A stretch of 64,000 nt of DNA from Escherichia coli. Its GTDB lineage: Bacteria > Pseudomonadota > Gammaproteobacteria > Enterobacterales > Enterobacteriaceae. The stretch lies in assembly GCF_030013205.1 (NCBI RefSeq), contig NZ_CP122648.1. One strand, given 5' to 3'. Made by a program: the position numbers and the translations under genes. Of this stretch, positions 34,380 through 47,840 are shown piece by piece (within the stretch, counting starts at the first letter, position 1; each line of letters starts with the position of its first letter). The notes under the pieces were generated by a model. That model searched no databases, was not told the DNA's origin, and worked only from the letters and a program-made list of their open reading frames with translations.

Positions 34380-35609
34380 GTGAGCAGAGCAATGAACAAA
34401 CTGAGCGACACATTGTTAAGAAAACTTCATGGTAAGCCGGCGGAGAAAAATACGTTTTATAGCGATGGCGGAAATCTGAGCGTGAAATATTTAACATCAG
34501 GGAAATTGACCTGGTATTTCACTTACAGGGCGGGAACGGGAAGGGGTACACCACCGGAACGCCTGAAGCTGGGAAATTATCCTGATCTGAGCCTGAAAGC
34601 AGCCAGGGAAAAAGCAGCACAGTGTCGCGCATGGCTGGCAGAAGGAAAAAATCCACGCCATGAGCTTAATTACTCCATACAGGAAGCACTAAAGCCGGTA
34701 ACGGTGGGCGATGCGATCAGCTACTGGCTGGAAATGCACGTAAAGGAAAACCGTGTCGATTACGTATGCCTGAAAAGCCGCCTTAATAATCACGTCATAC
34801 AGCATATTGGCAATATGCCACTGGATAAATGCGAGTTACGTCACTGGCTGGCCTGTTTTGACCGGATACGCAAAAAATCACCCGTAACATCTGGCCACAT
34901 GATGCAGGCGTGTAAACAGGCGCTTAAGTTCTGCCGTAAACGTCGCTACGCAGTCAGTAACGTTCTGGATGATCTCAACGTGGTGGACGTTGGCAAAAAG
35001 CCGGGCATAAGCGAACGCGTGCTGAGCAACAAAGAACTGAGCGAATTATTACAGGCGCTGGATAAAAAAATATTCCCGCCCTACTACAGCGCACTAATCC
35101 GCCTCCTGATTGTGTTCGGCTGCCGGACCGGAGAACTGAGGCTGTCGGAGATCAGGGAGTGGGATTTTAAGGAAATGCTCTGGACAGTACCGAAAGAGCA
35201 CAGCAAAACGAAGGTCGCCATATTCAGGCCAATACCGGAAAGCATTTTGCCGTTCGTCACACAGCTGGTGGAGCAGAACAGGCACACAGGGCTATTACTC
35301 GGGGAACTGAAACAGGAAGCCAGCGTGTCGCAATACGGCAGATTCACGCACAAAAAATTAAACCATCCGCACTGGTCACTACACGATATACGGCGCACGT
35401 TTACCACGATGCTGAACGATTTAGGCGTGGATCCACATATTGTCGAACAACTCACCGCTCACCAGATGCCAGGGATGCAACGAGTCTATAACCACTCCCG
35501 TTATATCGATGCGAAACGTAATGCGCTGGATATGTGGACAGAGCGATTAGAGATACTGGCAGGTGCTCACGAAAACGTAACCACACTGCCAATAGCCAGA
35601 GAAATATAA
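34380..35609 (+). CDS. int: tyrosine recombinase / P4-type phage integrase
   Basis: C-terminal catalytic region with HDIRRTF...HQMPGMQRVYNHSRY; start uncertain (GTG 34380 or ATG 34392). Confidence 0.85.
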   Translation: MSRAMNKLSDTLLRKLHGKPAEKNTFYSDGGNLSVKYLTSGKLTWYFTYRAGTGRGTPPERLKLGNYPDLSLKAAREKAAQCRAWLAEGKNPRHELNYSIQEALKPVTVGDAISYWLEMHVKENRVDYVCLKSRLNNHVIQHIGNMPLDKCELRHWLACFDRIRKKSPVTSGHMMQACKQALKFCRKRRYAVSNVLDDLNVVDVGKKPGISERVLSNKELSELLQALDKKIFPPYYSALIRLLIVFGCRTGELRLSEIREWDFKEMLWTVPKEHSKTKVAIFRPIPESILPFVTQLVEQNRHTGLLLGELKQEASVSQYGRFTHKKLNHPHWSLHDIRRTFTTMLNDLGVDPHIVEQLTAHQMPGMQRVYNHSRYIDAKRNALDMWTERLEILAGAHENVTTLPIAREI

Positions 35610-35630
35610 TTTTTTTCGCGATTTTTCAGA

Positions 35631-35690
35631 ACGGACACAACGTGAAACAACGAGACACAACGACGAACAACGGCGAACAATCTGGAACAA
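35631..35690. repeat. six tandem 10-bp repeats (cgNNNAACAA) downstream of int
   Basis: acggacacaa/cgtgaaacaa/cgagacacaa/cgacgaacaa/cggcgaacaa/tctggaacaa, in helical phase. Confidence 0.7.
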
Positions 35691-35976
35691 ACTTGATTAT
35701 CATCTGACCGACACCCTAAAAAGTTGATTTTCAGTCGTTTTACTGGCTTTTTGTACATTGGCGAATCACTCTTAAAAACATGTAAAAAAGGCGTAAAAAC
35801 AGAATTTTACGCTACCGCATCACAATGAATTAAAAGAGTTTTTATTCTCATTACCCCACTTCTGTAAAACGACCGCCACCAGTGTTTGCCATTCCATAAA
35901 CACCCTGACACAATCCGACCCAACCCAACCCAATAATCCACCCAATGACTCTTTAAGAAACAACAAAGGGGGAATT

Positions 35977-36165
35977 GTGTTAAGCACAGATCGCTTTATA
36001 CGTGAAAAAGAATGTCAGCAACTTACAGGCCTGAGCCGTTCATGCCGCTACCGCCTGGAAAAAGCCGGACAATTCCCATCACGGCGTAAACTCGGTGGTC
36101 GTTCCGTTGGCTGGTCTTTATCCGAAGTTCTGGCATGGAAGGACAGCCGCGAGGCAGTTCACTAA
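35977..36165 (+). CDS. alpA: AlpA-family phage transcriptional regulator / excisionase-like HTH
   Basis: 62-aa ORF; SD AAAGGGGGA then GTG; C-terminal ...GGRSVGWSLSEVLAWKDSR typical of AlpA. Confidence 0.75.
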   Translation: MLSTDRFIREKECQQLTGLSRSCRYRLEKAGQFPSRRKLGGRSVGWSLSEVLAWKDSREAVH

Positions 36166-46994: not shown

Positions 46995-47045
46995 TTTAAA
47001 TACACGCGCTTTCCGGCGCATTAATACAGTCTGAGGGGAAGTGTC

Positions 47046-47573
47046 ATGTTTATGAGCAAGGCAGAATATGCCAAACACAAAGGCGTAAGCCGCCAGACAG
47101 TTTACGACTGGATCGAGAAAGGCGAAGTGGTCATGTCCGGTAAAAAAATCGATGTGGAAGCGACAGAGCAGCGGAACAGCCCACCAGCACAGGGAAAAGA
47201 CACAGTTTCTGAAATGTGGCCAGAGAGAACGCTGGAAATGACGTGGGGCGAGTTCTGGAAAGCAGTTAAGGCCAGAGACGGTAAAATCCCTGCACCAGTA
47301 ACGGACAATGACATACAGCAGCGTGTACAGGATGCAGCCGGGGAACTATGCTGTGAAGTGCAATTTCTTGATGATGGTGCTATCTGCCTTGAGGATTATG
47401 CTGGGCAATATTACTTTGAGCAGTATGATTTTCGGGAAAATGCCAGGCTGGCAATTCGTATGCTGCGTTGTGAGCTCTGCTATGTTGCAGGTGATTGTCC
47501 CGATGAGCTGGATAACTGGAGTGAAGCCGGACTAAACGCCCTGGCTGAGTGGGAAAAATCAGGCCATCAATGA
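47046..47573 (+). CDS. HTH DNA-binding protein, candidate small-terminase-like / packaging-redirection factor
   Basis: N-terminus MSKAEYAKHKGVSRQTVYDWIEKGEV resembles phage Nu1/excisionase-type winged HTH; followed by a repeat array. Confidence 0.5.
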   Translation: MFMSKAEYAKHKGVSRQTVYDWIEKGEVVMSGKKIDVEATEQRNSPPAQGKDTVSEMWPERTLEMTWGEFWKAVKARDGKIPAPVTDNDIQQRVQDAAGELCCEVQFLDDGAICLEDYAGQYYFEQYDFRENARLAIRMLRCELCYVAGDCPDELDNWSEAGLNALAEWEKSGHQ

Positions 47574-47578
47574 CCTCA

Positions 47579-47840
47579 AAAAGTGTCAAGTTGAGCAGCT
47601 TGCCAGGTTGACACTTTACACTCTGAACGCGAAAAAGTGTCAACCTCGCTGTAAGCCCCGCCATTACTGGCCTTTCGCCAGATTTACCACGTCAAAAAGC
47701 CGAAAAAATCGCGAAAAGTGTCAAGTTGCCATGCTTAGAAATGCTAAGGTTTGATAAGGTTTTTCGCGAAAAAGTGTCAAGTGTGTCAACCTGCGATGTT
47801 AAGATTTGTTAAGGTCTTAAGCCGGAAAGTGTCAACCAGC
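47579..47840. repeat. array of seven GTGTCAA(C/G) repeats (candidate packaging / protein-binding site)
   Basis: copies at 47583, 47608 (inverted), 47637, 47718, 47774, 47783, 47829, most preceded by GAAAAA. Confidence 0.7.

Follow-up and report, generated by a model that had tools for sequence, protein, structure and literature searches.

The yifB gene of Escherichia coli ETEC4079 is interrupted by a phage-satellite island of 14,713 bp, located within the 64,000-nucleotide stretch of DNA analysed here (the window). The island is probably an integrated Gram-negative phage-inducible chromosomal island (PICI)-type satellite, adapted to Rac-SA53/vB_Apl-pPE4-like lambdoid myoviruses, and would be mobilised by a helper phage. 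Copies of the modular family to which it belongs occur in ~3% of complete E. coli genomes, as well as in other Enterobacterales. The island incorporates four helper-derived late genes, two of which are tail genes, that are under purifying selection. A helper-dependent, PICI-like satellite was put forward in the original prediction, and this assignment is supported by profile matches, homology to the PICI EcCIMP1, conservation at multiple att sites and co-occurrence with one phage type.

The element had been placed at positions 34380 to 47840, but the att cores set its limits further apart, from 34188-34203 to 48901-48916, inside yifB. The disrupted gene, coding for a comM-like Mg-chelatase ATPase, is annotated in RefSeq as pseudogenes and aligns to the intact yifB of K-12 as a 5′ fragment (34032-34205, + strand) and a 3′ fragment (48901-50265, + strand). 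The 16-bp core of attL (ATTATCAATAGCGGAT; direct repeat D18) matches the K-12 attB as far as ...GCGGAT and diverges thereafter, while homology among the sister islands starts at position 34187. The 16-bp core of attR (ATTATAAATAGCGGAT) was recognized as a direct repeat and by K-12 alignment. Sub-terminal repeats are located at both ends, with two copies of GGTGTAGTCA at 34299-34357 and GGTGTAGTTAATGGTGTAGTCA, found by repeat search, at 48779-48837, these left and right copies of a 59-nt repeat (D1) sharing 78% identity. The GGTGTAGTCA motif is also observed in the right arm of the sister island L004, and the repeats are candidate integrase arm-type sites.

Within these limits, the predicted order of integrase, AlpA, antirepressor, divergent region, replicase and iterons, regulator pair, operon, and HTH gene with repeat array, together with most of the gene identities, is borne out by profile searches and motif counts. 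The tyrosine integrase (34380-35609, + strand; WP_024212346.1; phrog_1, E=2.9e-71) reads into the island and is followed by an AlpA-family regulator/excisionase (35977-36165, + strand; PF05930, E=3.4e-18; phrog_2790), which shares 37% amino acid identity with the AlpA of EcCIMP1 and 46% with P4 Vis/ORF88. The adjacent AntA/AntB (Bro-network) antirepressor-like protein (36218-37018, + strand; phrog_5817, E=5.9e-42) is 59% identical to its EcCIMP1 counterpart. An Icd-like region (37293-38252, + strand; RefSeq, ORF list) comprises a pseudogene (37293-37650) and a gene (38049-38252; NF033153, E=3.5e-20; phrog_6196, E=9e-44), both of which fall inside a single open frame of 413 codons (37011-38252). 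The sole minus-strand gene of the island, encoding a YlcI/YnfO-family small protein (37646-37843; NF041551, E=3.5e-16; phrog_949), diverges from the Icd-like gene at 38049, with a promoter-like site on the minus strand at 37908-37880. In an Rfam scan of positions 33500-49500 (E<=1), the ilv leader, which lies outside the island, was the one genuine match; no RNA family, P4 CI, C4 and isrK included, was identified within the island. Positions 37181-37242 contain 60 nt of noncoding sequence that match pPE4 20274-20335, which precedes terS in that phage. A shared cos/pac site or operator was contemplated here but rejected, as the same 60 nt match the interior of Stx-phage lysozyme genes at ~80%.

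Three small conserved genes (38245-39098, + strand; profile search, RefSeq), encoding two phrog_340 proteins and one DUF4222 protein, abut the upstream side of the replicase gene, and a DUF4222 gene occupies this position in relatives from five genera. The replication protein (39095-40507, + strand; phrog_2850, E=2e-220) also matches helicase-primase phrog_906/3228 and combines a conserved N-terminal domain of ~130 aa with a RepA/RecA-like helicase domain. Its catalytic domain is a RepA-type helicase rather than a primase, while in sister islands this N-terminal domain, at 92-95% identity, is joined to a primase or DUF927. An AT-rich iteron origin follows (40508-40825), with a 26-bp inverted repeat and eight AAARTGGGK motifs in both orientations; all eight matches of the window lie here, against 2.4 expected per window, and none of 100 shuffles reaches eight. 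A variable 257-aa accessory ORF (40919-41692, + strand) occupies the hotspot downstream of the replicase, which has been described before (PMC11364771); it is kept in sister island L009 and missing or swapped in L004, L005 and L006. PADLOC identified no defence family among ten accessory or unknown ORFs, including this one. Next are genes for a ProQ/FinO-family RNA-binding protein and a PerC-family regulator (41716-42530, + strand; NF010317/NF003434; phrog_994 and activator PHROGs; dN/dS 0.07-0.14), the latter 46% identical to the PerC of EcCIMP1. A strong terminator-like hairpin (42570-42600, + strand; 12-bp stem and T-run) stands between perC and the late operon, and was flagged independently as a generic hairpin. 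We propose that a helper phage would turn on AlpA, that the integrase, with or without AlpA, would excise the island, that the replicase would amplify it from the iterons, and that the late operon would then subvert helper assembly.

The 3′ part of the island harbors a 175-aa HTH protein (47046-47573, + strand), in which a winged helix (aa 1-44) is joined to a novel α/β domain, followed by an array (47574-47860) of seven GTGTCAA boxes (six direct, one inverted) alternating with five TAAGRTYT boxes. The sequence AAGTGTCAA occurs six times against 0.61 expected, every copy within 47581-47835. The array layout is identical in five islands, AAGTGT(C/A)AA boxes follow HTH-protein homologs in Pantoea and Enterobacter, and the array is a candidate binding site for the HTH protein. 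By analogy with Rpp and TerS, the protein bound to its array may mark satellite DNA for the helper terminase. Alternatively, it may be a Cox/Xis/AlpA-like transcription or directionality factor, the GTGTCAA boxes serving satellite regulation or helper derepression and excision; we regard this as a serious possibility, albeit short of an even chance. The fold of aa 1-44 belongs to the Xis/TerS-N/Rpp/Cox class of winged helices, a generic resemblance, and its matches to TerS N-domains and RppC are as strong as those that suggest a regulator. The array lies ~1.1-1.3 kb from attR, too distant for an excisive intasome, and Rpp/cos units are likewise found in the 3′ part of E. coli PICIs (PMC6739421). 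Even minimal relatives with no further late genes keep this unit, which is what an indispensable role in hijacking would predict, but the same would hold for a master regulator. Sequence comparison revealed no homology to the Rpp proteins: a PDB sequence search (E<=10) did not retrieve RppC (6hn7), and the C-terminal domain is unrelated, RppA/B/C being 144-153 aa in length. Pfam gave nothing significant for the HTH protein. The small terminase profile phrog_57 matches weakly in the island (E=5e-7, over 42 residues). Mimicry of a phage packaging site by the array was rejected, as neither Rac-SA53 nor pPE4 contains GTGTCAA boxes; the island yielded no identifiable cos or pac site. A conserved 59-aa ORF (47867-48046, + strand) terminates the gene complement and is 93-100% identical in the sister islands, with small ORFs at this position in other genera.

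The late operon (42732-46994) had been regarded as uncharacterised, but besides a pair of tail genes it contains two genes derived from a helper-type head protease gene. Its genes are co-directional and open with a 57-aa ORF (42732-42905, + strand), which is 98-100% identical in sister islands and shares 52% identity with an EcCIMP1 ORF in the same position (L010 17783-17944). The next gene (42944-43528, + strand; dN/dS 0.23-0.32) encodes a free-standing C-terminal domain of the helper-type head protease/'TolA-nudix' protein, being 65% identical to aa 295-423 of Rac-SA53 rac43 and matching positions 405-545 of phrog_6216. The label 'NUDIX hydrolase' is incorrect for this product, and we propose that it is a capsid-targeting or scaffold domain. 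It is followed by a homolog of the prohead (capsid maturation) protease (43593-44276, + strand; DUF2213) with a long C-terminal helix. A PDB sequence search with this protein returned no match, while a fold search revealed an assemblin-like fold with conserved His/Ser catalytic residues, as in the HK97 and T4 gp21 prohead proteases. The phage counterpart is located between the portal/head-morphogenesis and capsid genes. The island's protease-derived genes are 65-69% identical to those of the phages, and their rearrangement into two genes is conserved across genera.

A precedent for such a detached domain is SaPI1 CpmB, which shares only the capsid-binding C-terminus of the phage 80α internal scaffold and redirects capsid size. 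The 42944-43528 product likewise corresponds to the helper-type protease/scaffold fusion in its C-terminal domain alone; CpmB and this product have no sequence relationship, so that the analogy is functional only, and the island also keeps a separate protease. The detached domain, together with a protease lacking it, would compete with or replace the fusion protein of the helper. The split genes could thereby redirect or spoil capsid assembly, the 14.7 kb of the island being ~0.3 of the 47.5-52 kb phage genomes, and capsid redirection is what we would conjecture.

The original prediction recognised no tail gene, which proved incorrect. The product of 44273-44890 (+ strand) shares 82% amino acid identity with Rac-SA53 rac52, whose gene lies between those for the tube and the tape measure; an assignment to rac44, a 205-aa gene adjoining the phage protease, was rejected (E=3.2). 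A T8 slippery run is located at 44652-44659, with the heptamer T TTT TTT at 44653; the 0-frame stops at 44890, and the -1 frame ORF ends at the start codon of the tape-measure gene, at 44955. From its sequence, 44273-44955 qualifies as a G/GT, E/E′-type tail assembly chaperone gene with a predicted programmed -1 frameshift. Three islands and two phages show no variation in either the slippery site or the dual-coding stretch. The following gene (44955-46994, + strand; phrog_7694; tape-measure phrog_2276) encodes a tape-measure-position protein with a C-terminal lytic transglycosylase region, which is 88.6% identical over aa 1-501 to pPE4 gp56, the transglycosylase at the tape-measure position of that phage; Pfam gave nothing significant for it.

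These two genes may constitute a later, optional gain, supplying tail-core and DNA-delivery parts for helper-built tails. That they are instead a recent hitch-hiker with no adaptive role for the satellite is, in our estimation, rather unlikely. Such a reading accords with the optional nature of the cassette, which is lacking in sister island L009 and has island-type copies (>=90% identity) in about 28 genomes, compared to 166 for the HTH module. The cassette is also closer to the phage than the protease genes are, with 88.5% DNA identity to pPE4 over 44273-46435 and divergence beyond, and cycles of large capture followed by loss have been proposed for PICIs (PMC10111431). However, dN/dS is 0.10-0.35 across the cassette (chaperone, 0.10-0.20; tape measure, 0.15-0.35), also between island copies, and neither the frameshift site nor the dual-coding stretch is disrupted. 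The cassette is a precise two-gene insertion between two backbone genes, translationally coupled to the gene upstream, and identical alleles have spread among islands with different integrases. Furthermore, compared with the nearest phage the tape measure has a substituted C-terminal third, and in other members of the lineage there are analogous genes for DNA delivery or the tail tip, each matching the helper type of the element concerned.

The island shares the gene organization of Gram-negative PICIs. The integrase is located at one end and reads inward, with alpA following on the same strand; the replicase (39095-40507) is adjacent to its own origin with eight iterons (40508-40825); the integration and replication zones are separated by a Bro/antirepressor zone consisting of AntA/AntB and the Icd-like genes; and the length of 14,713 bp, at a specific att site, compares with the 10-20 kb, or about one third of the helper genome, expected for phages of 47.5-52 kb. 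All four zones of the published plan, Integration, Bro, Replication and Late, are present in that order, the late zone being dynamic and captured from helper prophages, while Bro-network proteins and replicases exchange domains (Williams laboratory, PMC10111431). For PICIs, as many as 17 captured late genes have been accepted, with the capsid gene most common, and tape measure, DUF2213 and yifB are absent from the main text of that study (PMC10111431); the island's captures, head protease parts and tail-core genes, differ, and no C4/isrK-type immunity RNA was detected. SatelliteFinder defines a PICI by integrase, regulator (AlpA/MerR/Stl), primase-replicase, capsid morphogenesis and small terminase components, and treats tail, holin, portal and connector genes as forbidden (PMC10085698). 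Three of the five components (Int, AlpA and replicase) are encoded, the protease-derived genes arguably fill the capsid-morphogenesis slot, and the small terminase has a counterpart only in the weak phrog_57 match, while the tape-measure and chaperone homologs break the rule against forbidden components, as judged by homology rather than by SatelliteFinder's tail profiles. The predicted lack of portal, major capsid and large terminase genes was upheld by PHROGs, NCBIfam and RefSeq annotation, and profile searches and RefSeq annotation likewise identified no sheath, tube, baseplate, holin or endolysin/lysis genes. Neither of the findings named beforehand as incompatible with a satellite, a plasmid- or ICE-type module or a complete virion gene set, was made in the island, where no relaxase or conjugation module was found.

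The closest comparison is with EcCIMP1, an E. coli PICI mobilised experimentally by the P22-like phage Kapi1 (Pick et al. 2025, PMC11773190), whereas the island is known from sequence alone. Both have the order Int, AlpA, AntA/B antirepressor, DUF4222, Icd-like, replicase, late genes and PerC, and the late zone of EcCIMP1 also contains helper-derived DNA-delivery proteins (P22 gp14/gp7/gp20/gp16-type, including a lytic-transglycosylase protein). The captured genes differ because the helper types differ, a podovirus for EcCIMP1 and a candidate myovirus for the island. EcCIMP1 furthermore has an integrase of only 25% identity, a tRNA-Thr site and a TOPRIM-DUF927 replicase, and lacks homologs of the 175-aa HTH protein and the split protease genes. 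As described in the literature rather than by sequence alignment, EcCICFT073 and other classical Gram-negative PICIs also have int and alpA in one direction at one end, pri/rep with an ori, a PerC-like gene, homologs of helper late genes whose necessity is uncertain, a small packaging protein that binds DNA and is encoded close to the 3′ end, a length of 10-20 kb and no lysis genes (Fillol-Salom et al. 2018, 2019; PMC6092414, PMC6739421). EcCICFT073, with lambda/phi80 helpers, has capsid and head-decoration homologs and RppA (144 aa) beside cos sites, whereas the island has no capsid homolog or sequence-detectable Rpp, but a split protease, tail chaperone, tape measure and myovirus-type helper. 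The cf-PICIs share the PICI backbone and encode some virion components, namely capsid, portal, connectors and terminase, taking only tails from the helper. The island is their near mirror image, with two tail-core genes and no shell or terminase; profile searches found no major capsid, portal, head-tail connector or large terminase gene. The P4-like alternative in the original prediction fails. P4 resembles the island in its integrase fold, AlpA/Vis, an Icd-like/immunity-type region and a size of 11-15 kb, but only Int (23% identity) and AlpA/Vis match, and these are also common to PICIs and non-discriminating. P4-like satellites are defined by the psu-delta-sid operon, epsilon (Ash), alpha primase-helicase, integrase and AlpA/Vis (PMC8628076, PMC10085698), while tblastn of all island proteins against P4 found nothing for Sid, Delta, Psu, epsilon, alpha primase-helicase or cI, and no island gene matches psu-delta-sid PHROGs. 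The P4 helper is P2-like, unlike the candidate helper of the island, which also lacks the CI/C4 RNA.

The island family co-occurs strongly with Rac-SA53-type prophages, a statistic inflated by shared ancestry, many carriers being porcine ETEC of one study. In ETEC4079 itself no Rac-SA53-type prophage was found, the Rac site being empty and the abgR-smrA side unoccupied, and the chaperone/tape-measure probe yielded three copies, equal to the island-specific probe count, and no extra copy; this search would miss a helper diverged below ~80% DNA identity. A plasmid-like integrative (mobilisable) element, with the RepA-type helicase and iterons maintaining an episomal state, the phage genes as cargo, ProQ/FinO as in F-like plasmids, and the HTH protein and array as a centromere/partition or copy-control system, is very improbable. 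Profile searches and annotation revealed no relaxase, coupling protein, T4SS, oriT-type or ParA/ParM gene, the HTH module is chromosomal in 187/187 places with none on plasmids, and association with one phage type and homology to a helper-transferred PICI (EcCIMP1; PMC11773190) argue for a satellite. Least probable, and largely refuted, is a decayed Rac-SA53-like cryptic prophage with a few late genes left by chance, for while the late genes are clearly phage-derived, the Icd-like fragments pseudogenised and no helper detected in ETEC4079, the backbone is unlike that of a phage (inward integrase beside AlpA, DUF4222-replicase-iterons, ProQ/PerC, no repressor/Cro/Q/lysis organisation), the same compact architecture with intact ORFs occurs at at least three different att sites and in three copies in this genome, purifying selection acts on the late genes and the frameshift site is retained, the protease split is conserved across genera, and the cassette sits exactly between two backbone genes.

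Beyond the satellite assignment, it is conceivable, but in our view improbable, that this enterobacterial lineage systematically replaces the DNA-delivery core of its helpers with its own allele, producing chimeric particles while the split protease reprograms head assembly. The replaced parts may be tape measure and chaperone for the myovirus, gp7/gp20/gp16-type proteins for P22-like helpers (EcCIMP1) and Dit/baseplate-hub proteins in Pantoea. If so, a satellite-encoded injection apparatus could escape superinfection exclusion, encoded by helper or host, that targets ejection proteins or the tape measure, or could instead poison helper tails, and a protease cut off from its capsid-targeting domain would be a head-reprogramming mechanism not seen in SaPIs, P4 or PLEs. 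Tail genes count against a satellite in current detection rules, and such islands may therefore be overlooked or called prophage remnants. With a candidate helper type, a tail cassette present or absent in otherwise identical islands, a split protease and an HTH-repeat unit, the family constitutes a defined test system for what is gained from satellite-encoded tail and DNA-delivery parts, and for how packaging specificity arises with no recognizable TerS or Rpp. Phage satellites influence gene transfer, phage resistance and virulence regulation in E. coli, and PerC-family genes of a related PICI change expression of the LEE pathogenicity island. The host of the island described here is an Stx2e-positive porcine ETEC.

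The RefSeq annotation divides yifB into a 5′ fragment (34032-34205) and a 3′ fragment starting at 48901, with 20 genes between them, and a repeat search placed a direct repeat (family D18) exactly at both break points. In the alignment with the intact yifB gene of E. coli K-12, attL follows attB through ATTATCAATAGCGGAT and diverges thereafter, and attR is back in step with attB from ATTATAAATAGCGGAT. These limits define a 16-bp att core, ATTATMAATAGCGGAT, with copies at 34188-34203 and 48901-48916; the element interrupting yifB is 14,713 bp in length. The borders of the original prediction, 34380-47840, lie approximately 200 bp short of the att cores at the left and 1.1 kb short at the right. 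yifB is among the genes already catalogued as interrupted by integrative elements (PMC7192596). Sub-terminal 59-nt repeats, with GGTGTAGTCA twice, occur at 34299-34357 and 48779-48837 and are plausible candidates for integrase arm sites. The region matches the chromosome of the porcine E. coli strain ETEC4079 (NZ_CP122643.1) at 100% identity.

Two sister islands located between abgR and smrA (L004 and L005) encode integrases sharing 94-95% identity with that of the yifB island. Their att core, ATTATWAATATCGTGA, is related to, yet distinct from, ATTATMAATAGCGGAT; this is a recent att-site switch with co-variation of attP and target. The abgR-smrA islands are found only 30-35 kb away from a helper-type prophage at the Rac site.

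The predicted gene order was borne out by profile searches, which identified a tyrosine integrase (phrog_1; E=3e-71), AlpA (Pfam PF05930; E=3.4e-18), an AntA/AntB antirepressor (phrog_5817; E=6e-42), a RepA-type helicase/replicase (phrog_2850; E=2e-220), a ProQ/FinO protein and a PerC-family regulator, as well as two phrog_340 proteins and one DUF4222 protein. The Icd-like region holds a single minus-strand YlcI/YnfO gene. This gene lies antisense within a frame that is open over 413 codons (37011-38252; chance approximately 2e-9), starting where the antirepressor gene ends and extending through the Icd-like gene. RefSeq divides this frame between a pseudogene and a gene of 67 aa, although it may be a single long Bro-network gene. 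A 60-nt element in the same region (37181-37242; CAGAATATTTTGCTGCAAAATG...CGTCCGGAAAGCA...AAATTTTGCTG) is retained in three islands and in phage vB_Apl-pPE4 (L003 20274-20335). It was considered as a terS-linked site and rejected, as copies with approximately 80% identity also occur inside the lysozyme genes of Stx phages.

Profile searches of the island recovered no portal, capsid, large terminase, sheath, tube, baseplate or lysis genes, and the predicted lack of capsid, portal and large terminase genes thus stands. As shell and terminase genes are missing, the island is not a cf-PICI. Its layout fits the four-zone plan of Gram-negative PICIs (Integration, Bro, Replication and Late), in which genes captured from helper prophages make up the Late zone (PMC10111431). 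Partial homology is shared with EcCIMP1, an E. coli PICI whose mobilization by the P22-like phage Kapi1 has been demonstrated (AntA/B: 59% identity; small ORF at the head of the late operon: 52%; PerC: 46%; AlpA: 37%). The layout and this homology, along with the lack of shell and terminase genes, support the assignment of the island as a PICI-like satellite. The P4-like alternative fails, with P4 matched solely by the integrase (23%) and AlpA/Vis (46%).

An iteron origin is present as predicted, with all eight copies of AAARTGGGK in the window falling inside 40508-40825, where 2.4 would be expected over the whole 64 kb. The first ~130 amino acids of the replicase (39095-39490) share 92-95% identity with the N-terminal parts of the L004 and L005 replicases (L004 7466-7852; L005 7814-8212), a "DNA primase family" and a DUF927 protein with catalytic parts unrelated to the RepA-type replicase. 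The pattern is that of a domain swap upon a constant N-terminal module, for which a role in origin binding is possible. Islands that are otherwise nearly identical differ in a 257-aa ORF just past the origin (40919-41692), which some carry, some lack and others have replaced, and which sits in the PICI accessory/immunity hotspot "downstream of pri". It returned no match with PADLOC or NCBIfam and no informative match with PHROG.

The predicted repeat array behind the gene for the helix-turn-helix (HTH) protein (47046-47573) is likewise real, with six copies of AAGTGTCAA against 0.61 expected, all inside 47581-47835. Seven GTGTCAA boxes, one degenerate copy included, alternate with five TAAGRTYT boxes. 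A probe comprising the HTH gene and array matched 166 of 5426 complete E. coli genomes, in every case on the chromosome. Related islands are integrated at abgR-smrA, tRNA-Pro and tRNA-Gly and carry differing integrases, with RepA-helicase, primase or DUF927 replicases all built upon the common N-terminal domain. Homologs of the HTH protein are unnamed and restricted to the Enterobacterales. Their genes are always last or next to last in elements of Pantoea, Serratia, Rouxiella, Enterobacter and another contig, where the order is int, AlpA, (AntA/ORF6N/Ash), DUF4222, replicase, (SSB) and (ProQ-PerC). The late zone of these relatives ranges from none (Serratia) to homologs of Dit/tail-fibre, baseplate-hub and baseplate-assembly proteins (Pantoea). 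The HTH gene and its boxes form a conserved unit: AAGTGT(C/A)AA-type boxes also lie downstream of the HTH gene in Pantoea and Enterobacter, which matches the near-invariance of the first 41 residues of the HTH protein. The Rouxiella and Enterobacter elements have probable defence or accessory cargo within or beside them (L018 5622-7708; L014 8507-9877; L019 11609-12598), namely a RelA/SpoT-domain protein and an NA37 protein, a KAP NTPase, and Abi_2.

The late operon (42732-46994) had been regarded as uncharacterized. However, tblastn searches against phage records revealed homologs in complete phages of 44-52 kb, the nearest being the lambdoid myoviruses Escherichia phage Rac-SA53 and "Actinobacillus" phage vB_Apl-pPE4. 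In these phages the late genes are ordered TerS, TerL, portal, head-morphogenesis protein, a 430-aa DUF2213 protein, rac44 and capsid, followed by several genes, sheath, tube, rac52, a 657-693-aa transglycosylase in the tape-measure position, baseplate and fibres. Just four pieces of this operon are present in the island, and these matches indicate that the four late genes are of helper-type origin. The product of 42944-43528 matches the C-terminal domain of the DUF2213 protein (aa 295-423; 65% identity) and that of 43593-44276 its N-terminal 226 amino acids (54% identity), so that one phage gene corresponds to two island genes in swapped order. The RefSeq name of the former, "NUDIX hydrolase", is a misannotation derived from phage relatives with a DUF2213-NUDIX fusion; the protein contains no NUDIX domain. 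The chaperone encoded at 44273-44890 is 82% identical to the rac52 product, and its frameshift site is conserved; rac44 was also considered for this gene and rejected as unrelated. The last gene (44955-46994) encodes a protein 88.6% identical over its first 501 amino acids to the pPE4 protein in the tape-measure position. With this pair of genes, the original prediction that the island lacks tail genes does not hold.

The chaperone and tape-measure N-terminus share 88.5% DNA identity with pPE4 (44273-46435), while both protease-derived genes share only 65-69% with phage; there are thus two ages of capture. Similarity to pPE4 breaks off abruptly at 46435, beyond which the final ~185 codons resemble neither phage. 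In the tRNA-Gly sister island of strain HNSQ2209, which shares the backbone, the HTH gene directly follows the DUF2213 gene, and junction alignment shows that the chaperone/tape-measure pair forms a cassette fitted precisely between the stop of the DUF2213 gene and the start of the HTH gene. DUF2213 proteins of the short, satellite type (~223-229 aa) are found in Escherichia, Citrobacter, Salmonella, Enterobacter, Pantoea and Klebsiella. The captured genes are under purifying selection (Nei-Gojobori dN/dS: 0.04-0.35 in every late gene, island-island and island-phage). Strong terminator-like hairpins on the plus strand after perC (42570-42600) and between the protease-derived genes (43545-43568) suggest that the late operon is separately controlled or subject to antitermination.

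ETEC4079 harbors three copies of the late/HTH module. The copy at tRNA-Pro (proL; L006, NZ_CP122643.1 1811100-1824578) has another integrase and regulator and lacks the antirepressor; its chaperone, tape-measure, HTH and 59-aa products are identical to those of the yifB island. Late zones are thus exchanged between co-resident islands.

From what is known of the family, a helper would trigger the AlpA switch, Int would excise the element and the replicase would copy it at the iterons. The anatomy of the late zone suggests that the stand-alone C-terminal domain and the protease lacking it may compete with the helper protease/scaffold fusion, so that head assembly would be redirected or spoiled (size ratio: ~0.3), for which CpmB of SaPI1 offers an analog. 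The HTH protein, bound to its box array, may recruit the helper terminase, and the island chaperone and tape measure could be built into helper tails. The late zone of EcCIMP1, by comparison, encodes homologs of P22 gp14/gp7/gp20/gp16-type ejection proteins, one of them a transglycosylase, and EcCICFT073 encodes capsid and decoration homologs and RppA (PMC6092414, PMC6739421). Tail genes are forbidden components in the SatelliteFinder PICI model (PMC10085698), and the island subtype thus conflicts with this operational definition. The literature searched, coverage of which was incomplete, describes no PICI that carries a chaperone along with a tape measure, a DUF2213 protease split in two, or this HTH-array unit. 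The island is of interest for its tail-core capture, its split protease and its putative packaging determinant.

The pPE4 portal-to-capsid block, which is missing from the island, occurs in 90 of the 5426 genomes. Among the matches listed, 13 of 60 HTH-module carriers were among 60 helper carriers, where approximately one would be expected (hypergeometric P ~8e-12 with all 90 helper genomes counted, a statistic that ignores shared ancestry, in a sample where many strains are porcine ETEC from one study). Of the 12 genomes that best match the island-type chaperone/tape-measure cassette, at least seven also have the helper module, again ignoring shared ancestry. The island is thus associated with one phage type. 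No helper was found in ETEC4079, where nothing occupies the Rac site (uspF-ttcA) and the probe for chaperone and tape measure matched three places, equal to the island-specific probe, leaving no extra copy. In this strain a degraded prophage beside ompW (NZ_CP122643.1 2842000-2850000) encodes both the A and the B subunit of Shiga toxin 2e (stx2e), indicating a Stx2e-positive porcine ETEC/STEC hybrid. The pPE4 record (PP818812.1) itself resembles an E. coli lambdoid prophage, with DicA, Kil, YdaT, RecT and Hok-type genes and a portal-to-capsid block that dozens of E. coli chromosomes match at 97-99% identity; its stated Actinobacillus host deserves checking.
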